Positions 3,103 through 21,796 of a DNA stretch of 64,000 bases are shown here, piece after piece. Each line of letters opens with the position of its first letter. Within the stretch, counting starts at the first letter, position 1. Where the stretch lies: the NCBI RefSeq assembly GCF_022846255.1, contig NZ_AP025682.1. The stretch is one strand, 5' to 3'. The stretch is from Escherichia coli. Its GTDB lineage: Bacteria > Pseudomonadota > Gammaproteobacteria > Enterobacterales > Enterobacteriaceae. Both the position numbers and the translations under genes were made by a program. The notes beneath the pieces were generated by a model. The model did not search any database. It was given only the letters and a program-made list of their open reading frames with translations, and had not been told where the DNA came from.

Positions 3103-4152
3103 TTTGAAAACTGCCTGTACGGCAGTGAACAGCGCCCGCTTTTTTACCGCGTCAGCGCAGCGTTTCTAAGCTGCCTGTACGGCAGTGAACTCCCTGATTC
3201 AGTTGCGCTCCCCGACGAGCTGTTTCTAAGCTGCCTGTACGGCAGTGAACCGTTGGCGTTTCGCGGCAACAGGTTTTTCAATTTTCTAAGCTGCCTGTAC
3301 GGCAGTGAACGTAGTTTTGATTCCAGCGATAACTGCCTATTTATTTCTAAGCTGCCTGTACGGCAGTGAACGTAGTTTTGATTCCAGCGATAACTGCCTA
3401 TTTATTTCTAAGCTGCCTGTACGGCAGTGAACGATCAGGCCCGGCTTTCCCCACACGTTCGTATTTTCTAAGCTGCCTGTACGGCAGTGAACCGCCTGCC
3501 ATTCAACCTGCAAATAGTTTTCGATTTCTAAGCTGCCTGTACGGCAGTGAACGAACTGTGGCACGAGGTTGCAGGCGTAAGACTTTTCTAAGCTGCCTGT
3601 ACGGCAGTGAACGCCATCTTTGAATATAACGCCCCGATTGTGATTTTCTAAGCTGCCTGTACGGCAGTGAACCCCTACCGTTTTAATAAATGGGATTTGC
3701 ATTATTTCTAAGCTGCCTGTACGGCAGTGAACGCTGAGGTGTTTACAATGCGTGCCGTGCTGGTTTTCTAAGCTGCCTGTACGGCAGTGAACTCTGTTTT
3801 TCGTCAGCAGGATTAAACCAGGCATTTCTAAGCTGCCTGTACGGCAGTGAACTCTCATCAATTACGGGTTCGTTGGCTGGATCTTTTCTAAGCTGCCTGT
3901 ATGGCAGTGAACGTCTTCTGCGCATCCGTACCACTCACCAATGATTTCTAAGCTGCCTGTATGGCAGTGAACTTAATCGGTAACGTTGCTCTAATTCCCC
4001 CTCTTTTCTAAGCTGCCTGTATGGCAGTGAACCCAGCGAGAATTGAGGCTGTTTGCCGTGTGCTTTTCTAAGCTGCCTGTATGGCAGTGAACATAAACGC
4101 GCGCAGGTTGTTGAGGTGCTCGAGTTTCTAAGCTGCCTGTATGGCAGTGAAC
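3103..4152 (-). CRISPR. CRISPR array 1, type I-F repeat; 18 repeats / 17 spacers
   Basis: 28-bp unit TTTCTAAGCTGCCTGTACGGCAGTGAAC on the + strand (reverse complement of the I-F consensus GTTCACTGCCGTACAGGCAGCTTAGAAA) at 60-bp period; repeat starts 3103, 3163, 3223, 3283, 3344, 3405, 3465 ... 4125; spacers 32 bp except a duplicated 33-bp spacer; degenerate terminal repeat at 3103-3130 marks the leader-distal end. Confidence 0.97.
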
Positions 4153-8230: not shown

Positions 8231-8911
8231 CTATTTGACGGTTTTTACTTTTTCACTCAAATAGTTCCCATGGTCATCAATCAGCGTAATTGTATATTGA
8301 TTGATGGCTAAGGCTGTGGTGATAGTCTTATCTGACCAGGGGGCTAATAACAACGTTTCGTGATTTATTTTTCCACTTCCCATCAACTCAGGAATAGTTA
8401 TCCAGTTTGCGGAGTTGTTTTTGATATTAATACCACCATTGGCATGCTTAATGCTCAGACGACGAAAACTTTCTTTATCTACGCCAGTAAGTCCCTCTGG
8501 GCGGTAGATAAATTTAATACGATTCTGCATGGCGAATTTTATGCCATTCTTATCTTCTAATTCGGGGCAATTAGGTGGGATGTCTAGCACATTAAGGAAG
8601 AATAGGCTTTCGCGATCTTTTGGTAGTGTATTCGCCAATTTTTTGATTTTGAGTTGTTGCCCTTCCCCCCCTTTTACGTGAGCGACCGGTGGCGTCAACA
8701 CAAACGGAACATGAATTTTTTCTGGGGGTAGACTGGTATCGCCATCATCAATCCATGACTGAACCAGGGCGCTACGATTACCTTCATTCATTAACTGAAC
8801 GGTAATCTCTTTTTTCTTTTCTGGATAAATAACACGAGTGCCGTAGATATAGACACCACTCCACGCAGGCGTGACTATGCCGGCCAGCAAGAAGGCTATT
8901 AATTTTTTCAT
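8231..8911 (-). CDS. fimbrial periplasmic chaperone (PapD/FimC family)
   Basis: 226-aa ORF with signal peptide MKKLIAFLLAGIVTPAWS; size and operon position. Confidence 0.88.
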   Translation of the reverse strand: MKKLIAFLLAGIVTPAWSGVYIYGTRVIYPEKKKEITVQLMNEGNRSALVQSWIDDGDTSLPPEKIHVPFVLTPPVAHVKGGEGQQLKIKKLANTLPKDRESLFFLNVLDIPPNCPELEDKNGIKFAMQNRIKFIYRPEGLTGVDKESFRRLSIKHANGGINIKNNSANWITIPELMGSGKINHETLLLAPWSDKTITTALAINQYTITLIDDHGNYLSEKVKTVK

Positions 8912-9892: not shown

Positions 9893-10447
9893 TCAAAACC
9901 AGGGAATAGTGGCGGTTGCGCTTAATCCGTAACTACTAAATTCCCCTTTAACCGGTTCAGTAAGCAAATCACCATGACGGATAAACAGCTTGAACTGCTG
10001 CTGACTCGACAAACTATTCATATTAAGAAAGGGTAAATCGGTCCGCTGTTCAGCCTGCGTCGCCAGTCGCTCAATCGCCTGTTCTTCAGTTAGCCAGCCT
10101 TTTTTCACTGAACGCCTTAACAGACGCTGAGGGTTACTTTTTACCTGTACACGACTTACGACTCGCCAGCCTTTAATTTCAGGTACTAGCGTGACAGGCG
10201 AACATTGGCAGTAATCAGTAAGCCCTTTACGCCACGTAGAGGCTTCAAGTTCTTGCAATGCGGGGGCACTGCCGTGCAAGCGTAAACGCGCTCCCGGCGT
10301 AACATTCACGTCCGGGAAACTCACGCCGATATCACCTTGCCCTCTTGCACCTAATGCCCGATGCAATTTGGCAAATAACGCCGCCATCAACATTTCGCTC
10401 GAAAATTCAGGATCTGGCAGAACGCGGATCTCAAGGTAGTGATCCAT
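9893..10447 (-). CDS. cas6f: Cas6f / Csy4 crRNA endoribonuclease
   Basis: ORF 9893..10489 trimmed to MDHYLEIRVLPDPEF..., the recalled Csy4 N-terminus; AGGAG RBS 7 nt upstream of the ATG at 10447. Confidence 0.92.
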   Translation of the reverse strand: MDHYLEIRVLPDPEFSSEMLMAALFAKLHRALGARGQGDIGVSFPDVNVTPGARLRLHGSAPALQELEASTWRKGLTDYCQCSPVTLVPEIKGWRVVSRVQVKSNPQRLLRRSVKKGWLTEEQAIERLATQAEQRTDLPFLNMNSLSSQQQFKLFIRHGDLLTEPVKGEFSSYGLSATATIPWF

Positions 10448-10457
10448 TGGCAGCTCC

Positions 10458-11459
10458 TTATTCCGATTTCTCACCAAAGACACCGCCACGGATCAGCACA
10501 GCCATCACGTAGCGCTGCTGATCAACGTCTGGTTTCATCCCTTTAGTCACCCAATTGTCCAGTAAGGTATAAAAGTCGAGTTTTTCTTTCGGTTGACGGC
10601 AGGCCACACCGCGACTGGTTACAGAACCGTAAGGTTCCACGGCTATAGCCCCCAATTCATCAACCTTTGGATGCCAGGTATCAATGGTACGTAAAGCATT
10701 GCCAATCTTCTGAGAGTGAATACCGGCAATGCCAGCCACCTGGTATAACACGCGACTTTTACTACTGTTGCTGTCGAGTACCAGCTCCTGCGACGGAAAA
10801 ACTTCTTGCCCGGCACCAAGACGAACCTGCGCTTCAACGGTAAGCATCACCCACTCTTTTGCGCTTAATCCTTGCTCTATAATGGCCGCCAGCTGCGTGA
10901 CCGCTGCCTGTCCCTGGTCAAATTGACGTAAAGAGAAGTCATGGCTGTTAAAAGTCCAGGAAGTGTCGTTAGCAGTAACTTTCACCTGGATCTGCTCAGC
11001 ACCAATGCGGTTGCGCCACAGAAAACGACCATTTGCCAGATTCAGCGCATAGCGAAGCGCCAGCTCTTTAAAGCCATGTTCGCTGATGTAACCTTCAATG
11101 ACCCCGGAAAGCGCCTCCTGGTAAGCCATATCATTACATACTGACGGTGTGGATAAATTACCCAGCACACGCAGCGTAAACACCACCTTTAACGTATCCG
11201 CATCTACCGGAAGCGAAGCCACATCCACCCGTTGCAGGTTAGCTTTTTGGATTTCAGCATCCAGTTTTGTGGAGTCACTGGTAATCGTATTTTTCAAGCG
11301 ATTAGAGATAGTTCCGCGAACCGCTTTCTCCTGAATCTCAATGGGTTGCCATACATTTCCTTGCCAGTTACCTGCGTACATTACCGCGTCAGATGTTGCC
11401 AGTTTGCGCTCAAATGCCAGTACCGATGCCGTTTTTATTACTACAGGAGCCTTTGCCAT
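10458..11459 (-). CDS. cas7f: Cas7f / Csy3 (Csy complex backbone)
   Basis: 333-aa ORF; size and operon position between csy2 and csy4. Confidence 0.9.
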
Positions 11460-11469
11460 AATTATGTCC

Positions 11470-12393
11470 TTATTCTAAATCGTCATATTCATTAAAAGTA
11501 AAATCATCACCAGCTGGCATTGCCGAGCAATAGTAGCCAGTGTCCGTTGTGCGGTAACGCCACATCAGCGGTTGCAAGTCAGTTATGCGATGTAATCCGC
11601 GCCATTCGCCGATGCCATATACCGCTTCGGCAAAAGCAAATGGCGTCACGGTGTCGCGCGCATTTTCAACTTCACCGGGTGCGTAAACAGGAGAAATGCG
11701 TTGGTAGCCACACATTAACGGTACCAGGAAACCAGGCATTGGCTTCGGCTGATATGTCCATTTTGCGCTGTTGTCTTCTGCCGGAGATTCGGCCTGATAT
11801 TTAACGGCAGCAAAATCAAGCCAGGCATCCAGCAATGAGATGTCGGGATGTTGTTGGTGATGTTCAGCCAGCCATTCACTGCGATCGTAAAGCGCATAGC
11901 CAGGCATTAAACGCCAGATGATTTTACGCAGTTGCTTTTCATCTTCAGGCGCATGAAAAAGCTGTGGTTCGCGCATGTCAACAATGCTGCCGCCCGCCAG
12001 TTTGTGGCTCTGGCAGAGCATTTTCAGATGGTCACACAGAGCTTTTCTGCCATATTCACCATTGGTGATTTCCCCTTCACATTCAATGAGCAAAGATACC
12101 GTCAGATGCATACGGCCCTCTTCATTGAACGAAGCGGTTTTACCTTCTCTGGTTAGTGGGTTACGGGTGAGAGCAAACTGAAAATACCGCCCAGAGCTAT
12201 ATGCCTGAATATGTTGTTCATGGCTAACTACCGCGCAACCGTCAAAACTTACGCCAAAATCATCCGCCACTTTGCGAGAAAGCGCATGAACATAGCCGAG
12301 AAAATGGGTCATCGCCGGGAATCCCCAGGTCAACCCGGAGACGGCGTTAGCGTTTTCGATACGTATATGGGGTAACAAGAGCAGATAACTCAT
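11470..12393 (-). CDS. cas5f: Cas5f / Csy2
   Basis: 307-aa ORF; 4-bp overlap with csy1; operon position. Confidence 0.88.
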
Positions 12394-13697
12394 TTCAGCG
12401 CCTCCTGCAAAACAGCTTCCATTTCACGCATCCGTTGAGCGAACAGAGACTGGCTGCGCCATTCTCTTTGCTCGACAGCGCCCACGTCGAAACTGGATTT
12501 TTTCAGGCGATAGTTGAGCCAGCGCGCAAAATCATCGGCCACCGCCCCCTGCCAGTCGTTTTTCTCCCGCTCCAGTTTGAAAACCTCATCGGACAGGCTT
12601 CGCCACGGATCCAGCCAAAGCTGCTGATGGCGAGGTAAATCTTGCGATTGCGCTGACCATCCCTGCCATTTTTCTTGCTGAAAAGCGGATGCCTGCATGA
12701 ACAGCAGATCGATCAACTCATCAATATATTTCGCCCGCGCAGTTCGGATATGAACATTATTTATGTCAACCTTCAACAGGTAAGTCATCCGGGCGATAAT
12801 GCCCGAAGCCGCCCTATTGAAATCGCCGCGTAAGGCAAAAATACTGAGCATGTTTTGTGGTGCGCGATCCAGCGTCGCCCAGGTAGGCGGCATTGACGGC
12901 AACAGCCAGACGCGCCCCCCACGCACACTATTGAGCAATGAAATATTTTGCGGTTTTGTGCCTCCGAAATGCATTTCAGCAAGATTCGGGAAACGAATAT
13001 CTGGCTGTGAGTGCCATTTACCTGCTTTGTGCGCTTCGCGAATGGCTTTCGATTCCTCACTAAAGCGCACGGCGGTTAGCTTTTCATACATCGCCTGCGC
13101 CAGTGAACTGGAAAACAGTGGGCATAAGAGGTGATAACCATCCGCAACAGGGAAATAGATTTGTTTTGCCAGTTTATGGCTGGCAGGCCGTCCAGTTGTC
13201 CATGCCTGGCTAAACCCAGCTACCCACTGCTCCAGTTGCGCTTTATCCTCTGCAAACGTACTTAATGCCTGATAATCACCACGCTTCAGGCTGGCAAGCA
13301 GTGAATCTCCGTTCACATCAGTTTGTAGCAACTTTGCGACGTCAAGTGCAGCGGCGTTACCAATCGCGTCAGTAGCGACATTCGCCAACGATGCCGTGTT
13401 TAAATAGCTTTCGTTAGCGGAGGTTTCCAGATAAAAGCTACTGGCTTTAGAATCACCATGACTGAATTTAGCGCCATGAGTGACTAATTTGATTTGCCCG
13501 GCACGCTTTGCCGCATCCGTTAACCAGTGACGAGGCAGGTAGCGTGCCTCGAGTTCCTGCCGCTCCTGAGCGATGACGCTGGCATCCTCGCCCTGTTCCA
13601 GTCGCTTTGTTGCTTCTTTTTCAAAGGCCTCGACTTTGGGTTGCCTTCGCGAAGCGATATAGTCAGTGATAAATTGTATTAGCGCCGTTTTTTCCAT
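12390..13697 (-). CDS. cas8f: Cas8f / Csy1 (large subunit)
   Basis: 435-aa ORF; AGGAG RBS upstream; operon position. Confidence 0.9.
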   Translation of the reverse strand: MEKTALIQFITDYIASRRQPKVEAFEKEATKRLEQGEDASVIAQERQELEARYLPRHWLTDAAKRAGQIKLVTHGAKFSHGDSKASSFYLETSANESYLNTASLANVATDAIGNAAALDVAKLLQTDVNGDSLLASLKRGDYQALSTFAEDKAQLEQWVAGFSQAWTTGRPASHKLAKQIYFPVADGYHLLCPLFSSSLAQAMYEKLTAVRFSEESKAIREAHKAGKWHSQPDIRFPNLAEMHFGGTKPQNISLLNSVRGGRVWLLPSMPPTWATLDRAPQNMLSIFALRGDFNRAASGIIARMTYLLKVDINNVHIRTARAKYIDELIDLLFMQASAFQQEKWQGWSAQSQDLPRHQQLWLDPWRSLSDEVFKLEREKNDWQGAVADDFARWLNYRLKKSSFDVGAVEQREWRSQSLFAQRMREMEAVLQEALK

Positions 13698-13940
13698 CTC
13701 GGCTCCTTTCGTTAATCCATCAAATTGAAGTTGCTCCCTGACTTCACTGAAAAATCTCCGTAGCCCAACCAGGCTTCAGTACAACGACGCATACAGCAAA
13801 AGGGACAACACCCGTGGTGATAATCATGGATAGCTCACCTAGAGGTATCTACGTTTTAATCTAGTAAAATCCATGCAATAACCAATAGTGATATTACCAT
13901 GCATGAAATATTTGCCACACAATGATTTAAAAACTAACAT

Positions 13941-14016
13941 TCACGCACTGCCGTTGGCAGCTTAGAAATAGAGGTATCTCCGGATACGGACTTGTAAACT
14001 GCCGTACAGGCAGCCC
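13941..14016 (+). repeat. two degenerate CRISPR repeat-like sequences in the cas3-csy1 intergenic gap, inverted relative to both arrays
   Basis: 13946-13968 CACTGCCGT-T-GGCAGCTTAGAAA (loop shortened from 5 to 3 nt); 13998-14014 ACTGCCGTACAGGCAGC (17-nt exact repeat core); consensus orientation is on the + strand, opposite to the arrays. Confidence 0.6.
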
Positions 14017-14024
14017 GCGCCCCT

Positions 14025-17000
14025 TCACGGGGCGCGGTACACACCTAACCAGGGGTGATAACGCCAGTCATCGACCACATCTTCTTCACTGACGGGTACT
14101 CTCACCTCAGCAAACTTTTCCCCAACGCTTGCTATCTCACAACCTTGCTTATCAGCTAAATTCAACAAAACGTGTTGGTAATCCATCACGCCCCAGCAAG
14201 CGACACCGCTGGCGCATCTCACCTCTTCTCGCCTGAAATTCCCTTGCGCTTTACGCTCGTTGTCGCCCGTACGGGAATAGAAACGCGCTTCGCTTTCTTC
14301 ATCATCCATATGCAGAAAAAATACCGCCTCCGGCAAAGGGGAATAACGAAATGGCGTCTGGCGCTGTATCCAGCCGTTCCAGCTTAGCGGTGCACGCCAC
14401 CATTGCGCCGCCACCACATGTTTGCTTTTACTGCTCATCAATTCGGCGGATAAACGACTATGTTCTAGCTCCGCCAGTTTGTTGGCATTATTGGCAGACA
14501 GGATCCGCGGCAAGGCGTTAATCGTCCGGTAGTCCGCGATCGGAATCAGTTCGCAAATATCGTGGCTATTCAGCAAGTGTTCTTTTGTTTCGAAACCAGG
14601 CTTACAAAATGCGGGGGCTTTTTTCTGCAATGATTTGATATTGCTACGCAAAATAACCAGATTCTCACTGGTCGGCACATTTCTACGGTGGCGCTGAATA
14701 CGTCCGGCAAATTGAATTATCGAACGCATGGAGCTTGGTTCGATAATTCCCCAATCCGCATCCCAGTCACGCCCCACTTCTATAACCGATGTCCCCAACA
14801 CCACAAACAGATGGTGCGATTCCGGACGGTTATGTAAGGCATCTGCGATATCTTCGTTGTTCCAGAAATCGAGTTCGTTATGACGGGTAAAAGCGCGGTC
14901 CAGTCGCTTCTCAATATCTGAACGCACCGCCAGCGGGTGTCGGGAGTGGTAAACACAATAATGAATACAAACATTTTCTGGTGAAGGAATGGCAATCAGG
15001 GCTTTGGTCACTGCAACCAGTGGATTGATATTCGCGAAGCGCACCAGGCCCAGCGAAACGGTTTTACCGCTTTCGTGTAGCTGGCGATGCGCCTGATGCA
15101 ACTTCAGCATTTGCGTATGCACCGTCTGGGCCACACTTTCGGTAACATCCTGGATTGCAACTGATGCAGATGAAATCGAAGCAACACGCCCGAAATGCAG
15201 CCGCTCTTTTTCAGCCAGCATTACCGCCCGCCTGGCAACAAATTTTGTATGCGCATCGCGAAAGGCCGCTCCATCGCTAATTTGCGTGGCATCAGCATCG
15301 TTTTCGTCAAACCAGGCACAGCAAATATTGACGGGCCTGCCGTTGGTACCACAAGACGCCTGCCACATTTTACGCCCGGCAAGATAAGCCGCGAACAGCG
15401 CCTGAATCAGGCCTGGCGGAAGCGTCGCCGAAGAGAGTAACACCCGCGTTCCCAGCATCCCGGCCCAGTTCATCAAACGACATACCGCATGAAGATCAGC
15501 AATATCAAAGTCGTCGGGTTCGTCGAGCACTAAATCGCTGGTTAACAGACGCAACATCGCCGGAAGCTGTTTCCCGCCACGCACACCCTCGGTCGCGGAA
15601 ATAAGATGATCAATTGTCGCGACCAGAATCGGCGCGCTCACTAACGCCTTAAGTTTGCTGTCATCCTTCAACCATTTTTCCAGCGCCCCGGTATGCAGGC
15701 TGCCTTCGTACTTAACGAACTGTTGCTCCTCTGCCGGCGACTCTTGCGAGGCACTTCCACAATCATTGTCTATTTTTTCCTGCTGCCAGAGCTGTTTAAC
15801 TGCCGCCGAACCAATTAATACCGCCAGCTCATCCTCACCGAGTCCAAGTCGACTACGCAGAGCATCGCCGGTTTGCAAAGTCAGCGTACGCAATCCCAGC
15901 GCGACGGTAAAACGGCACCCTTCCCGCTCATCGGCAAGCGCATACATAATGCGGGCGTTCGCAAAGGTTTTACCGCACCCCGTCGAGGCCATATTAACGC
16001 CGAAAAATCCCTCCTCCCGGCTTCGTTCACGTAACGCTCGCGCCACATCCGAGGCTTTATCCTGCCAGCGATATTTCGCATCTGTAGCTCGCTGGCTAAA
16101 ACCTTTATGTCGGGCAATTGCCGGAAGAGAAGCCCGTGTGCGCATCAGCTGCCGCCCAAGCAAAAACGCATGATGTGCGACGCCGACCAGGTGCTCGTCC
16201 ACCCGTTGTTTGAGTGCGCCACTTTGCCTATCGCTATTTGCCCAGACGATATAATCCGGCTCCTGCCATTTTTGCTGCGCATCGCTTGAGGAATAGTAAT
16301 GATCGGCAAGCATCAGGCAAAAACGCGCCATATGTGAGGGGAACAACTGTTCCATCAGCCCGTATGTCTTTAAACCGAGCGCGTTACTTGCCCGGCGGGA
16401 AATCTGATGTGCTTTTTCTCGCCAGCTAGCACTCTGAAGCGGTGTTCCAGCCGGAAATTGCCAGACGTGCGCAAAATCCTGTTGTAACCAGTCATCTCTG
16501 CGGTGGTTAACGGCATTCCAGTCAGCATTAAGTTGCCTTTCCAGCCAACTTTCACACCCTTTGCAAGATTGTTCCGGTTGTGGCGAAAGATTCTCCGGAA
16601 TTCGATGATGGGAAAGGATCAGCCAACCTACCGTTTTGGCTAGCGGTTGCAGCGAAGTAAATGGGCTATCTGAAAATTGAGGCGTGTCTTTTAGCAGGCG
16701 TTCCAGAATCGCAGATTCATCATCTGCCGTAAGTTCGCCAAGCTTCGCCAGCCACACATCGTCGGGCCGATCACCGACAAACGCCTGAAAGAGCCGCAGT
16801 GAGATCCATTCATGTCGGTATGGTTGATAACTGCGGGCATTCTTTTGGGTCAGGCTTTGCTGAAAGCTGCGTCCGGATTTTCCAAAATCATGAAATAACC
16901 CGGCGATGGCTGCCAGCAGCGCAATGCTTTCCGCACATTGCCAGCGGTTTTCTTCCTTGTTCACCAGGCTGGTTTGCGTTGTGCGATTTGTGGGAACGCG

Positions 17001-17258
17001 CCCCTGAGCATTAAAACGACGAATATTACCCACAATCCACATCAACTCAATTTGTCCATTCTTCTTTAGCCAGTGACATGCCACTGCGGTATTTCGCCTG
17101 GCAGTTTTGCGCAGTAAACGGCGGAGTGTATTAACGCCTTCCAGAGTAATCACTGTTTGCCATGCGGCATCACCTGTACGTTCAGCAAACTGATCAATAA
17201 TACGGCAGCTTTCCACGCGGGCGTTTTTTGTACAGCGCGAGATAATCAGAACATTCAT
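14025..17258 (-). CDS. cas3: Cas2-Cas3 fusion (Cas3f: N-terminal Cas2, HD nuclease, helicase)
   Basis: 1077-aa ORF; N-terminus MNVLIISRC...FAERTGDAAWQT resembles recalled I-F Cas2/3; HD motif LFHDFGK; 4-bp overlap with cas1. Confidence 0.95.
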   Translation of the reverse strand: MNVLIISRCTKNARVESCRIIDQFAERTGDAAWQTVITLEGVNTLRRLLRKTARRNTAVACHWLKKNGQIELMWIVGNIRRFNAQGRVPTNRTTQTSLVNKEENRWQCAESIALLAAIAGLFHDFGKSGRSFQQSLTQKNARSYQPYRHEWISLRLFQAFVGDRPDDVWLAKLGELTADDESAILERLLKDTPQFSDSPFTSLQPLAKTVGWLILSHHRIPENLSPQPEQSCKGCESWLERQLNADWNAVNHRRDDWLQQDFAHVWQFPAGTPLQSASWREKAHQISRRASNALGLKTYGLMEQLFPSHMARFCLMLADHYYSSSDAQQKWQEPDYIVWANSDRQSGALKQRVDEHLVGVAHHAFLLGRQLMRTRASLPAIARHKGFSQRATDAKYRWQDKASDVARALRERSREEGFFGVNMASTGCGKTFANARIMYALADEREGCRFTVALGLRTLTLQTGDALRSRLGLGEDELAVLIGSAAVKQLWQQEKIDNDCGSASQESPAEEQQFVKYEGSLHTGALEKWLKDDSKLKALVSAPILVATIDHLISATEGVRGGKQLPAMLRLLTSDLVLDEPDDFDIADLHAVCRLMNWAGMLGTRVLLSSATLPPGLIQALFAAYLAGRKMWQASCGTNGRPVNICCAWFDENDADATQISDGAAFRDAHTKFVARRAVMLAEKERLHFGRVASISSASVAIQDVTESVAQTVHTQMLKLHQAHRQLHESGKTVSLGLVRFANINPLVAVTKALIAIPSPENVCIHYCVYHSRHPLAVRSDIEKRLDRAFTRHNELDFWNNEDIADALHNRPESHHLFVVLGTSVIEVGRDWDADWGIIEPSSMRSIIQFAGRIQRHRRNVPTSENLVILRSNIKSLQKKAPAFCKPGFETKEHLLNSHDICELIPIADYRTINALPRILSANNANKLAELEHSRLSAELMSSKSKHVVAAQWWRAPLSWNGWIQRQTPFRYSPLPEAVFFLHMDDEESEARFYSRTGDNERKAQGNFRREEVRCASGVACWGVMDYQHVLLNLADKQGCEIASVGEKFAEVRVPVSEEDVVDDWRYHPWLGVYRAP

Positions 17259-18244
17259 TGATCAGCCTTAGCCAGTGCCTGGGCAGTTTCCTGCAAAGAG
17301 GTGATCATGACATCCAGCGCATCCGTTTGTTGAAAGATATTGATGCAGCGTAGACGAAACTCCTGGGCATCTTCACCTGCCATCGCGGCGATAAATGCTT
17401 GCGGCATCACAAGGGCATCTTTAATCAGATCGGCAAGGTCAAAAACCAGCCCGCCGCGACGTGTTTTACCGTGCATTACTGCTAAACCGTGCGGGATCCC
17501 GGTTACCCACGCCGCCACTGCTGCCAGTCCATAAGCCAGATAATTCCCTTGATCGAGGAAGCGGTTGGCCATATCAATACCACCGCCCCGTTTTGCGCGA
17601 GTGAAATCGCCATACCCCACTGTTTGACTGACCATTTTGTATAACGCTTTAGTCAATTTGGCCTCTACGAGCATAAGCTGCGTATGGTTTTCTGCCGCGT
17701 CTATTTCTTCACGAGTACGATTCAGGAGGGTATGCAGCGCATTAACATCAGGTTGAAATGCGTGTTCACGCTGCATTTTCGAGCTGGACCAGTGCTTATC
17801 GATATGTGTCAGGCGGATTAACTGAAAACGTTTCGCGGCGGCAAGTCGTTTATCTTCAGCAAACCAAAAAGAAACCCACTGCTGGAGATACTCTGTAGGG
17901 CGATATTCACTTTGTGGGCTGAGCCAGGAGACATCAACATCCACTTCATTTGCCGAATACAGCGGCGTGCCATCCGTACCACAAAAGCCCACCATCACCC
18001 CGGCATGAGCAAATTCACGCATCGCCGCCTGAGTAACGGAAGTTCCCATTCCCAACATCAATGCCGTGGTATTCGCAATGGGGATATTCCAGTAGTACGA
18101 CTCTTTACCTTCGCTGGTGACATACTCCACCCGCCCACCATTCACCTGTACCCGGCATTTTTCCAGATAATAAATATTGGCGCGTTTGGAGTGGAGAATG
18201 GTTTTGAGATCGGAAGGCGTGAGGTAATTCGAAGACATAAACAC
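17255..18244 (-). CDS. cas1: Cas1 integrase (type I-F)
   Basis: 329-aa ORF; SDLKTILHSKRANIYYLEKCRVQVNGGRVEYV resembles recalled I-F Cas1. Confidence 0.95.
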   Translation of the reverse strand: MFMSSNYLTPSDLKTILHSKRANIYYLEKCRVQVNGGRVEYVTSEGKESYYWNIPIANTTALMLGMGTSVTQAAMREFAHAGVMVGFCGTDGTPLYSANEVDVDVSWLSPQSEYRPTEYLQQWVSFWFAEDKRLAAAKRFQLIRLTHIDKHWSSSKMQREHAFQPDVNALHTLLNRTREEIDAAENHTQLMLVEAKLTKALYKMVSQTVGYGDFTRAKRGGGIDMANRFLDQGNYLAYGLAAVAAWVTGIPHGLAVMHGKTRRGGLVFDLADLIKDALVMPQAFIAAMAGEDAQEFRLRCINIFQQTDALDVMITSLQETAQALAKADQ

Positions 18245-18409: not shown

Positions 18410-19277
18410 TTGTGAAACTACCTGTACGGCAGTGAACCGCGTAGAGCTGCTGCGCAAACTCGACACTCATTTCTAAGCTGCCTGTACGGCAGTGAACCCT
18501 CGTTCATCAAGGTGCTCAAAGCTTGACATTTTCTAAGCTGCCTGTACGGCAGTGAACGCCAAGAACGCTGTTACCGCTTCCCTGTGCGCTTTCTAAGCTG
18601 TCTGTACGGCAGTGAACCCAGATTGCCGAAAACATCGCCTTTGATGAACTTTCTAAGCTGCCTGTACGGCAGTGAACGGGCGCGGTGTCGTCCAGGATTT
18701 GGAGGCAACTTTCTAAGCTGCCTGTACGGCAGTGAACAACAGGTCGTCCAGCGCATCCCACGGATCCGGTTTCTAAGCTGCCTGTACGGCAGTGAACATC
18801 GCGCACACGCAGTCTTACATTTGCCACCATTTCTAAGCTGCCTGTACGGCAGTGAACGAGTGATTATTATGGCCCAATCGGACGATGACTTTCTAAGCTG
18901 CCTGTACGGCAGTGAACCTCCACCCGTGGTAAGCAGAAAGGGCCGTAACTTTCTAAGCTGCCTGTACGGCAGTGAACTGATCTGTTGCGATACTGACAGT
19001 ATCGTTAGCTTTCTAAGCTGCCTGTACGGCAGTGAACTGTTTTTTTGACGTGTAAACCGGGCGGTTTTTTTTCTAAGCTGCCTGTACGGCAGTGAACATC
19101 TCCGTATTTACTGTCCTCCCTGCTATCCATTTCTAAGCTGCCTGTACGGCAGTGAACTGCCAGTTTCGAAAACGTGCAGCAAATGCAGTTTTCTAAGCTG
19201 CCTGTACGGCAGTGAACTACCTTAATTTGAAATGAACCTTTGCCGCATATTTCTAAGCTGCCTGTACGGCAGTGAAC
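18410..19277 (-). CRISPR. CRISPR array 2, type I-F repeat; 15 repeats / 14 spacers
   Basis: same 28-bp repeat at a strict 60-bp period (starts 18410, 18470 ... 19250); all spacers 32 bp; degenerate terminal repeat at 18410-18437 (cas1-proximal); one variant repeat at 18590-18617. Confidence 0.97.
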
Positions 19278-19489: not shown

Positions 19490-21766
19490 TTAATGCGCTG
19501 CTTCCGCCTTGTGCTTTTGTGCACTCTGGAATCCGTAAGTCAGCTCATTTTTATCTTTATCCAGCGCAACCGTCACCTGACCGCCGTCCACCAGCGAACC
19601 AAACAACAGTTCGTTGGCGAGCGGTTTTTTCAGGTTGTCCTGGATGACACGCGCCATCGGACGTGCGCCCATTGCCCGGTCGTAACCTTTCTCGGCCAGC
19701 CAGTTACGCGCTTCCTGGCTCACTTCCAGAGAAACACCTTTCTGATCCAGCTGAACCTGCAACTCGACGATGAATTTATCCACTACCTGATGGATCACGT
19801 CGGTGGAGAGATGATCGAACCAGATAATGTTGTCGAGACGGTTACGAAACTCCGGCGTAAAGATCTTCTTGATCTCTTCCATCGCATCAGTGCTGTTGTC
19901 CTGGTGGATAAGACCAATCGATTTACGCTCAGTTTCTCGTACCCCAGCGTTGGTGGTCATCACCAATACCACGTTACGGAAGTCCGCTTTGCGTCCGTTG
20001 TTATCGGTCAGCGTACCGTTGTCCATCACCTGCAACAGAATATTGAACACGTCCGGATGCGCTTTCTCGATTTCGTCCAGCAGCAGTACCGCGTGCGGAT
20101 GCTTGATGACCGCATCGGTCAGCAGCCCCCCCTGATCAAAACCAACGTATCCCGGAGGCGCACCAATCAGACGGCTGACGGTATGGCGTTCCATATACTC
20201 GGACATATCAAAGCGCAGAAGCTCAATGCCCAAAGCTTTCGAAAGCTGTACCGTCACCTCTGTTTTCCCGACCCCGGTAGGACCGGCAAACAGGAACGAA
20301 CCGACCGGTTTATGTTCGTGACCTAAACCTGCACGCGCCATCTTAATGGCTTCAGTCAGCGCCTCAATGGCTTTATCCTGACCGAAGACCAGCATTTTCA
20401 GGCGATCGCCGAGGTTTTTCAGGGTATCGCGGTCACTCTGCGAAACACTCTTCTCTGGAATGCGCGCAATACGGGCCACCACGGACTCAATATCCGCCAC
20501 ATTAACGGTTTTCTTGCGTTTGCTTACCGGCATCAGGCGTGCGCGAGCGCCCGCTTCGTCGATAACGTCAATGGCTTTATCCGGCAGATGACGATCGTTA
20601 ATGTATTTCACCGCCAGCTCTACCGCTGCACGCACCGCTTTTGCGGTATAACGCACGTCGTGGTGCGCTTCATACTTCGGTTTCAGGCCATTGATGATCT
20701 GTACGGTTTCTTCTATCGACGGTTCAGTAATATCAATTTTCTGGAAGCGACGCGCCAGAGCACGGTCTTTCTCGAAAATGTTGCTGAACTCCTGATAGGT
20801 TGTCGAACCAATTACGCGGATTTTACCGCTGGAGAGCAACGGTTTAATCAGGTTAGCCGCATCGACCTGGCCACCAGACGCTGCACCCGCACCGATAATG
20901 GTGTGGATCTCATCAATAAACAGGATGCTGTTAGTGTCCTGCTCCAACTGCTTGAGCAACGCTTTAAAACGTTTTTCAAAGTCGCCGCGATATTTTGTGC
21001 CCGCTAACAGAGAACCGATATCGAGAGAGTAAATCGTACAGTCAGCCATCACTTCCGGCACATCGCCCTGAACAATTCGCCAGGCAAGCCCCTCCGCAAT
21101 CGCGGTTTTACCGACACCAGACTCCCCCACCAGCAGCGGGTTGTTTTTACGGCGACGGCAGAGAACCTGAATAGCACGCTCCAGCTCCTTCTCACGACCA
21201 ATCAGTGGGTCGATTCCGCCCACTCGCGCAAGCTGATTCAGGTTCGTCGTGAAATTCTCCATACGTTCCTCCCCACCAGCTTGTTCTTCGCTGTTTGGCT
21301 GGCTGCCAGGATCAGAAGACTGTGTCGGCTCGTCTTTACGCGTGCCATGAGAGATAAAGTTCACCACATCGAGACGGCTGACTTCATGTTTGCGCAACAG
21401 ATATGCCGCCTGCGACTCCTGTTCGCTAAAGATAGCGACCAGAACGTTTGCACCGGTAACCTCATTGCGACCGGAGGACTGGACATGGAAGACCGCACGT
21501 TGCAGTACACGCTGAAAACTCAGCGTCGGCTGTGTGTCGCGCTCCTCTTCACTGGCAGGCAGAACGGGTGTGGTTTGTTCAATAAAGGCTTCCAGTTCCT
21601 GACGGAGCGCAACCAAATCCACAGAACACGCTTCCAGCGCCTCCCGGGCAGATGGGTTACTGAGCAGCGCCAGTAACAAGTGCTCGACGGTCATAAACTC
21701 ATGACGGTGCTCGCGCGCTCTGGCGAAAGCCATATTTAAACTGAGTTCCAGTTCTTGATTGAGCAT
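19490..21766 (-). CDS. clpA: ATP-dependent Clp protease ATP-binding subunit ClpA
   Basis: ORF 19490..21781 trimmed to [24 protein letters not shown]...; two AAA+ modules. Confidence 0.95.
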
Positions 21767-21796
21767 AGGCACCTCCCCCAATTTTTATGCCTGCAT

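Follow-up and report, generated by a model that had tools for sequence, protein, structure and literature searches.

Introduction

In type I-F1 CRISPR-Cas loci, mini-arrays have been described that lie between cas3 and cas8f, run opposite to cas3 and contain a seed matching a CC-flanked site at the cas8f promoter, mismatches being allowed at positions 6 and 12 (Shmakov et al., 2023). In Pseudomonas aeruginosa, the RNA of such a mini-array represses this promoter together with the Csy complex and without Cas3 (Shmakov et al., 2023). RNAs of this kind were given the name CreR, and the autorepression is lifted by competing CRISPR RNAs (crRNAs) or by anti-CRISPRs (Liu et al., 2023). In published targets of I-F mini-arrays, the dinucleotide CC is the I-F protospacer adjacent motif (PAM; e.g., Shmakov et al., 2023; Wang et al., 2023), and the guides of bacterial I-F CreA/CreR elements are 23–27 nt long. 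Here we analyze a stretch of 64,000 nucleotides from Escherichia coli (contig NZ_AP025682.1 of RefSeq assembly GCF_022846255.1, hereafter the window) and describe a mini-CRISPR located in the gap between the cas3 and csy1 genes of its type I-F locus. From its sequence, we propose with a probability of about 75% that this conserved element encodes a crRNA-like guide that steers the Csy complex to its own csy leader, which would place it in the CreR/CreA class.

The type I-F system of E. coli serves as a working model for I-F immunity, and its regulation has been little studied. The mechanism that we propose was already published between 2021 and 2026, and the Escherichia locus is a further instance of it, not a new mechanism. 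No paper retrieved in our literature search describes the Escherichia I-F element, the search having left aside the supplementary tables of the key papers, where the element may be listed.

Results

A repeat-derived mini-array occupies the cas3–csy1 gap

The gap between csy1 (12390–13697, minus strand) and cas3f (14025–17258, minus strand) spans 327 bp (13698–14024), the length given in an earlier, model-made reading of the same DNA (hereafter the original prediction), and carries no annotation in RefSeq. The original prediction had reported two repeat-derived sequences in this gap, in the orientation opposite to both CRISPR arrays of the window, and we confirm that both match the array repeat (GTTCACTGCCGTACAGGCAGCTTAGAAA) on the plus strand only. 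The first degenerate repeat, here termed psiR1 (13943–13968, plus strand), contains CACTGCCGTTGGCAGCTTAGAAA (13946–13968), which aligns to repeat positions 4–28 with one mismatch and a deletion in the loop. The shortened loop had been noticed before, the deletion measuring 2 nt instead of the 1 nt then assumed. Within psiR1, the stem-loop CTGCC-GTT-GGCAG (13948–13960) is directly followed by an intact 8-nt 5′ handle, CTTAGAAA (13961–13968). The second degenerate repeat, psiR2 (13994–14021, plus strand), opens with GTAAACTGCCGTACAGGCAGC (13994–14014), which preserves the 3′ handle hairpin, with 19 matches over repeat positions 1–21. This part includes a predicted exact repeat core of 17 nt (13998–14014), which we find to correspond to repeat positions 5–21. 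Positions 22–28 of psiR2 are unrelated to the repeat, and the next 5′ handle is lost. Among the 34 copies of the repeat core in the window, the one in psiR2 (CTGCCGTACAGGCAG, 13999–14013) is the sole copy on the plus strand.

Between the two degenerate repeats lies a spacer-like guide, psiS (TAGAGGTATCTCCGGATACGGACTT, 13969–13993, plus strand). The segment separating the copies had been described as spacer-length; at 25 nt it is shorter than a normal spacer of 32 nt and falls within the range of known bacterial I-F CreA/CreR guides. The element has the build of a CreR/CreA mini-array in that two repeat-like sequences flank one spacer-like sequence, within the cas locus but outside the arrays. 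It also shows the split of handles stated for CreR/CreA, with the 5′ handle retained in psiR1 and the 3′ handle hairpin in psiR2. CRISPR-DR4, the Rfam model of the I-F repeat, scored psiR1 at 22.7 bits and psiR2 at 20 bits on the plus strand, below its gathering score of 35, as degenerate repeats would be expected to do. Beyond these sub-threshold matches, Rfam returned nothing in the gap and no leader match. The plus strand of 13941–14040 folds far better than shuffled sequences (z = −4.6). We also observed an internal palindrome, GTATC-TCCG-GATAC, within psiS (13974–13987).

A sigma-70 promoter of the mini-array is predicted at 13912–13940 on the plus strand (TTGCCA-17-TAACAT), with its −10 element ending 7 nt before the psiR1 stem. 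It is the sole promoter-like site returned by a tool scan of both strands from 13500 to 14300.

The guide matches a PAM-flanked site in the csy leader

An 11-bp motif, TAGAGGTATCT, recurs at 13840 and 13969. The original prediction had reported both copies as a side remark and had missed the link to a CC PAM and to guide–target pairing. Because the psiR1 alignment ends in an intact 5′ handle at 13968, psiS opens with this 11-mer: the copy at 13969 starts exactly at psiS position 1 and makes up the first 11 of its 25 nt. The copy at 13840 begins a protospacer-like site, hereafter the target (13840–13853, plus strand), which lies 141 nt upstream of the csy1 ATG and is directly preceded on its 5′ side by CC (13838–13839, plus strand), the type I-F PAM. 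Target and psiS are identical at positions 1–11, mismatched at position 12 and matching again at positions 13 and 14, which gives 12/14 paired positions when position 6 is counted as unpaired. Type I complexes flip out every sixth nucleotide, so that positions 6 and 12 are unpaired. When the rest of the gap was shuffled, a CC-anchored run of at least 11 nt appeared in 2 of 200,000 shuffles, and no second CC-anchored psiS site of this kind exists in the 64-kb window. Nor is there another site in the window that the invariant 3′ half of psiS could target. A match between the 5′ part of psiS and a nearby PAM-flanked (CC) site is a further property that the element shares with CreR/CreA mini-arrays.

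We also considered whether psiS is a genuine immune spacer, i.e., whether the element is a tiny second array directed against a mobile element. Twenty-one nucleotides of psiS are identical to two identical viral contigs of IMG/VR, but the viral site has no CC PAM and the contig is GC-rich, unlike enterobacterial phages. By a rough estimate that assumes the size of the collection, chance would yield about 0.1 such matches, and the match is probably coincidental. Furthermore, psiS measures 25 nt and not 32 nt, its sequence shows no spacer turnover in the 31 loci compared below, and a pattern for the psiR1–psiS junction had 0 matches in IMG/VR, i.e., no phage copy of the junction was found there. 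An immune function is accordingly, in our view, improbable in the extreme. Regarding the viral match itself, TAGAGGTATCTCCGGATACGG occurs at 8730–8750 of one GC-rich contig (L162) and at 791–811 of the other (L163), just upstream of a sequence resembling the 3′ end of a tRNA (GGTTCGATCCCC...CCA); neither ARAGORN nor Rfam detected an RNA gene (tRNA, tmRNA) at this place. A search of IMG/VR for phage copies of the element, of the kind known as Cracr, gave 120 matches to a 15-base pattern, none of them in a repeat context.

Guide and target are conserved and co-vary

For comparison, we assembled a set of 31 loci representing 9 haplotypes, from E. coli, Escherichia whittamii, Escherichia sp. E1V33 and metagenomes. 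Out of 5426 complete E. coli genomes, 238 contain the gap sequence and the same 238 contain csy1; the element is therefore present in every E. coli I-F locus of this set. A species-level genome scan added E. whittamii, Escherichia sp. E1V33 and one more E. coli. A metagenome scan with the psiR1–psiS junction pattern returned 10 loci, of which four are true homologues (three of the type found in a clade of 37 E. coli genomes and one new haplotype); the other six were discarded as ordinary I-F arrays or chance matches. A check against other I-F loci, which the original prediction had called for, shows that the repeat-like fragments are kept in all 238 E. coli loci as well as in the other Escherichia species.

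Conservation is concentrated in the mini-array. Over a run of 35 nt comprising psiS positions 12–25 and psiR2 positions 1–21, there is no variable site in the 9 haplotypes, while 47–57% of the sites in the flanks vary. The loop of psiR1 is variable across haplotypes (GTT, ATT, ATC or CTTGA) with its stem and 5′ handle kept, and psiS as a whole varies only at positions 5 and 6. In a position-weight scan, the TTGCCA-17-TAACAT promoter ranked first in 8/8 haplotypes scored, each time at the same place in the alignment. As a separate observation, the non-pairing half of psiS (positions 12–25, 13980–13993), fully invariant in the 9 haplotypes, is more conserved than the seed.

The variation that does occur is distributed unevenly between paired and unpaired positions. 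The PAM (31/31 loci) and positions 1–4 and 7–11 are invariant in guide and target alike. Position 6 varies independently in the two (G or A in the guide; G, A or T in the target), and position 12 is mismatched in all 31 loci. At position 5, guide and target always agree: both have G, except in the 37-genome E. coli clade, where G has changed to T in each of them. As a result, differences between guide and target are confined to positions 6 and 12. Judged from these alignments, the pattern is what pairing of psiS and target in a type I complex would produce, and it is unlike that of a decaying remnant.

The headline of the original prediction was such a remnant: a vestigial, decayed piece of an inverted array without present function. 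Degenerate repeats that stay under the Rfam gathering score, a short spacer (25 nt) and the lack of an evident leader-like region for acquiring spacers would all fit this description. Decay does not, however, agree with 35 invariant nucleotides amid flanks variable at about half of their sites, with a conserved promoter in the correct position, or with a PAM-anchored match of 11 nt that arises in about 1 in 100,000 shuffles. Nor does it agree with a compensated change in the seed, the other differences falling at unpaired positions 6 and 12, or with the occurrence of the element in all E. coli I-F loci and in other Escherichia species. The mini-array is repeat-derived and inverted, as originally described, but its conservation and co-variation contradict a vestigial state, which we regard as very improbable. 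The element also differs from an ordinary or decaying array in its degenerate and asymmetric repeats and its 25-nt spacer, which is the same in 31 loci: no spacer has been gained in any of these loci, while the flanking arrays differ between strains.

The same layout is found far outside Escherichia, in Desulfamplus magnetovallimortis (Csy1 42% identical), with a different psiS of 20 nt and a CC-flanked target matching it at 18/20 positions. There, the target lies about 113 nt upstream of csy1, and psiR2 (GTAAACTGCCGTACAGGCAG) is identical to the Escherichia psiR2, including GTAAAC instead of the GTTCAC of the repeat. The I-F locus of Pseudocitrobacter faecalis has no gap and no mini-array.

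Promoters and RNA structures around the target

Two candidate promoters of the leader and the csy operon were identified on the minus strand by position-weight scan. The first, TTGGTT-16-TAGATT (13885–13858), has a −10 element that ends 7 nt before the target. The second, GTGGCA-16-TAATAT (13918–13891), has a −10 element that ends 40 nt before the target and a −35 element standing back-to-back with that of the plus-strand promoter. Both score 8.4–8.5, compared with 12.1 for the plus-strand promoter, and the target is situated 0–45 nt downstream of these two weakly predicted promoters. The 3′ part of the leader, which includes the csy1 Shine-Dalgarno (SD) sequence, is conserved (13698–13743, minus strand; seven variable sites), and the leader RNA folds no better than shuffled sequences (z = 0.27). 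A tool scan of the region revealed no terminator between cas3 and csy1 on either strand. At the other end of the gap, an all-GC hairpin straddles the cas3 stop codon; a hairpin overlapping the cas3 3′ end had been predicted as 7 bp at 14017–14036, and we find 9 bp at 14015–14037. It is present in the window and in one other locus (L002) and absent from the other haplotypes. We rejected this hairpin as a part of the module, given that it is not conserved and also occurs in Pseudocitrobacter, which is without gap or mini-array.

The hairpins of the gap could in principle act through structure only, as a decoy or sponge for Cas6f, as Cas6f sites in antisense cas3–csy read-through RNA, or as a terminator or insulator. 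The CTGCC/GGCAG stem is self-reverse-complementary, so that a read-through RNA from the minus strand would bear the same stems, and three to four hairpins are stacked right after the cas3 stop in the strongly folding plus-strand segment (z = −4.6). Yet structure on its own does not explain the PAM-flanked seed match, the co-variation or the conserved plus-strand promoter, and the asymmetry of the psiR1 and psiR2 handles is sensible solely for transcription of the plus strand. In addition, the GC hairpin is missing from most haplotypes. Two ideas of the original prediction fall with these results: a Cas6f decoy fails to account for a PAM-anchored, co-varying target, and a terminator has no corresponding site on either strand and would leave the PAM-anchored match unexplained. 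The existence of a guide–target relationship also separates the element from a solitary repeat or Racr-like decoy of Cas6f. We judge an element acting through structure only to be highly unlikely. A third idea, that the region divides the expression units of cas1–cas3 and csy1–4, agrees with our analysis.

A model of Csy autoregulation

Alongside the PAM-anchored match, the conservation, the co-variation and the conserved promoter motif, we observe an anatomy that fits the published class of I-F mini-arrays, and from this fit we infer the successive steps of transcription, Cas6f processing, loading, binding without cleavage and repression. The plus-strand promoter (13912–13940) would transcribe psiR1–psiS–psiR2 away from csy1 and convergently with the 3′ end of cas3. 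Cas6f would cut at the base of both hairpins, after 13960 and after 14013, releasing a 53-nt RNA (13961–14013) made of CUUAGAAA, the 25-nt psiS and GUAAACUGCCGUACAGGCAG. This RNA would be loaded into a Csy complex with one Csy3 fewer than normal, which would recognize the CC PAM (13838–13839) and pair with the minus strand at positions 1–5, 7–11 and 13–14. Because the complementarity is short and guide and target coexist stably in 31 loci, this pairing would probably not lead to cleavage by Cas2-3, and the complex would remain bound as a roadblock or repressor. It would then sit at the start of the divergent transcript that comprises a small open reading frame (ORF, described below) followed by csy1-csy2-csy3-cas6f. 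That operon (9893–13697, minus strand) encodes the complex to be guided and is presumed to be the regulated unit as well. Free Csy complex would in this way repress its own operon in a negative feedback, and derepression would occur when crRNAs from the arrays titrate the Csy proteins or when anti-CRISPRs inactivate them.

Several observations weigh against this model. The minus-strand promoter to be blocked is weakly predicted and was missed by the stricter tool scan; instead of occupying a promoter, the target may therefore be part of the transcribed region, up to about 45 nt from its start. The uninterrupted pairing amounts to just 11 nt (12/14 positions), compared with 17–19 nt in the CreA RNAs of Acinetobacter. 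Positions 15–25 of psiS, which do not pair with the target, are invariant, for which autoregulation gives no reason. Finally, the psiR1 loop has only 3 nt, which might impair cutting by Cas6f.

A small open reading frame downstream of the target

Directly downstream of the target, the minus strand contains a hydrophobic ORF of 27 codons, ORF-A (MIITTGVVPFAVCVVVLKPGWATEIFQ, 13827–13744). Its SD sequence, AGGTGA (13840–13835), overlaps the PAM and target position 1. As no terminator precedes csy1, ORF-A would be co-transcribed with the csy operon. The 27 codons are retained in 6 haplotypes of 3 Escherichia species, with about 5, 1 and 7 variable sites at the first, second and third codon position, respectively, and with conservative replacements. 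In a clade of 201 E. coli genomes, ORF-A is frameshifted, which is the derived state, and has lost its ATG. Pseudogenes of csy1 or csy2 were found in 5/12 sampled loci of this clade, representing three independent lesions, versus 1/19 loci with an intact ORF-A (Fisher’s one-sided p ~0.02, uncorrected for clonality). Neither ORF-A nor the alternative frame has a significant match in NCBIfam, PADLOC or PHROGs, and no ORF of the gap is longer than 36 aa.

These data raise the question of a CreTA-like addiction, in which the guide RNA would be the antitoxin (CreA) and ORF-A or the leader RNA a toxin that is freed on loss or inhibition of Csy. Since ORF-A and csy1–4 appear to be co-transcribed, such a function would extend autoregulation rather than exclude it. 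ORF-A has the creT layout of Acinetobacter and P. aeruginosa, being divergent from the mini-array, downstream of PAM and target and preceded by an SD sequence; this SD sequence is nevertheless partly dictated by PAM and target, because their CCT reads AGG on the opposite strand. As in the presumed Escherichia arrangement, the P. aeruginosa CreTA1 toxin shares its promoter with the cas genes. Retention of the 27 codons across species, with mostly third-position changes, would suit a coding function, but the skew between codon positions is not significant (13 sites), and neither the final 24 nt of the ORF nor the leader that follows shows any variation, unlike a coding pattern. The derived frameshift in the clade where csy lesions accumulate would be expected if addiction had ended there; however, the association ignores clonal relatedness, and the frameshifted clade still has an open frame of 37 codons, starting from GTG, at the same place. 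A metagenomic locus (L140) moreover combines an intact mini-array and an intact ORF-A with a mid-gene nonsense mutation in csy2 (E152*). Compared with CreTA, the locus offers a 27-codon ORF with an SD sequence but neither the tandem rare or proline codons nor the following GC hairpin of known CreT RNAs, nor any hairpin or terminator before csy1, and the peptide has no family match.

On balance, we see addiction as possible though unlikely. Its more specific form is doubtful: the toxin would be either the 27-residue hydrophobic product of ORF-A, which resembles type I toxins, or the ultra-conserved leader RNA around it, co-transcribed with csy1–4, and the frameshift in the 201-genome clade (which includes APEC O1 and NC101) would have ended addiction and permitted the repeated decay of csy1 and csy2. 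Should ORF-A prove toxic, the CreTA family would gain a toxin of the peptide type, and the difference in csy decay between the two E. coli clades could in part be explained.

Two side observations concern ORF-A and the decaying loci. The last 7 codons and the stop of ORF-A (13744–13767, minus strand) form 24 nt without any variable site, while the first 20 codons contain 18 variable columns, suggesting that the csy leader contains an element at the RNA or DNA level. The lesions, which are independent of each other, are stops in csy1 (codon 358) and csy2 (codon 72; shared by three strains, among them APEC O1), one frameshift each in csy2 and cas1, and csy2 E152*. The loci with cas pseudogenes are L002, L003, L004, L146, L148, L157 and L140, with decay concentrated in the 201-genome clade.

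Cas genes, gene calls and arrays of the locus

The mini-array belongs to a complete type I-F system encoded on the minus strand, in which 6/6 Cas proteins are NCBIfam equivalogs. In addition to cas3f and csy1, these are cas1f (17255–18244), csy2 (11470–12393), csy3 (10458–11459) and cas6f/csy4 (9893–10489). The neighboring clpA gene (19490–21781) is 99.2% identical to E. coli genomes, showing that the window is a segment of an E. coli chromosome; despite this identity, the haplotype of the window occurs in no complete E. coli genome. Its csy1 is 93.7% identical to that of the 201-genome clade and 80–90% to that of the 37-genome clade, whereas its gap is about 90% identical to the 37-genome clade and about 83% to the 201-genome clade. 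These opposite patterns point to a mosaic locus with recombination near the csy1 start.

In the 201-genome clade, GenBank and metagenome gene calls place a ‘hypothetical protein’ of 104 aa (or 37 aa or 54 aa) across the gap (e.g., loci L146 and L147; proteins P0001 and P0003), and one source labels the call ‘YbhN family membrane protein’. We rejected the 104-aa protein as a gene: it is an antisense translation of the mini-array and leader, and stops interrupt the frame in the window. The locus-tag numbering of several RefSeq records jumps by one value between csy1 and cas3f, and the skipped tag may be a withdrawn gene call.

The two arrays lie on the minus strand at 3103–4152 and 18418–19277 and share the repeat given above. 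In the downstream array, Tandem Repeats Finder reported a 61-nt unit at 3283–3433 (2.5 copies, 100% identity), which means that an identical 33-nt spacer is present twice in succession; the spacing at 3283–3405 is correspondingly 61 nt and not 60 nt. A G-to-A variant of the repeat (CTGCCATACAGGCAG) is found in five successive repeats at one end of this first array (3885–4152), and a degenerate terminal repeat closes each of the two arrays (3103–3130 and 18418–18432). In the upstream array, a period of 180 nt, i.e., three repeat-spacer units, was reported at 18950–19277 with 78% identity, which hints that spacers three units apart are partly similar.

Discussion

A universal guide with a co-varying self-target provides a concrete and easily testable mechanism of Csy autoregulation in Escherichia, and the element would offer a natural read-out for anti-CRISPR activity. 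The free positions 6 and 12, together with the compensated position 5, furthermore make natural variation at this locus an exceptionally clear confirmation of the type I pairing rule.

Among described systems, the I-F1 mini-array of P. aeruginosa (YL84; Shmakov et al., 2023), later designated CreA1/CreA2 with CreT1/CreT2 (Wang et al., 2026, preprint), shares with the Escherichia element its location in the cas2-3/csy1 gap, its orientation opposite to cas3 and a pair of repeat-like sequences around a short guide (20 or 26 nt in P. aeruginosa). In both, the target has a CC PAM and is placed shortly before the csy operon, and guide and target may be mismatched at positions 6 and 12. Repression by the P. 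aeruginosa mini-array requires the Csy complex and not Cas3, and the CreTA1 promoter is common with the cas genes. The two elements differ in the sequences of guide and target and in their frequency, every E. coli I-F locus containing the element compared with about 15–26% of P. aeruginosa loci. The associated small ORFs are also dissimilar, with 27 hydrophobic codons in Escherichia and, in P. aeruginosa, a 15-nt mini-ORF (ATG-Pro-Pro-stop) followed by a GC hairpin. Repression has been demonstrated experimentally in P. aeruginosa, while the Escherichia element is known from sequence.

The CreTA module of Acinetobacter sp. WCHA45 (Wang et al., 2023, Nat Commun) likewise has a psiR1–psiS–psiR2 arrangement in the cas3–csy1 region (about 400 bp in Acinetobacter), a CC-flanked partial target and, downstream of that target, a small ORF that is preceded by an SD sequence and divergent from creA. 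Its psiS is 20 nt long with 17 paired positions, compared with 12/14 in Escherichia, and its creT is a 33-bp mini-ORF producing a bactericidal RNA, whereas a toxic ORF-A in Escherichia meets a counter-example in locus L140. In the CrePA system of Acinetobacter baylyi ADP1 (2024 preprint), a creA mini-CRISPR in the cas3–csy1 gap represses a protein gene downstream of a CC-flanked target. CreP, however, is a 103-aa KilAC-domain protein, while the Escherichia gap contains no KilAC-domain ORF of about 100 aa between cas3 and csy1, its longest ORFs being 36 aa or shorter and its small ORFs having no family match.

With the I-E CreR of Salmonella enterica (Liu et al., 2023), the Escherichia element has in common a stand-alone crRNA-like RNA, predicted in our case, a PAM-flanked partial match and no proven toxin; CreR autorepresses the effector cas operon. 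The Salmonella system differs in its subtype (I-E), its AAG PAM and its 15 contiguous matching nucleotides. The phage-encoded repeat mimics (Racr and the Cracr arrays) are repeat-derived small RNAs as well, which engage Cas6f and Csy proteins. Those mimics counteract the system of the host from phages or plasmids, whereas the Escherichia element is chromosomal and resides inside the cas operon.

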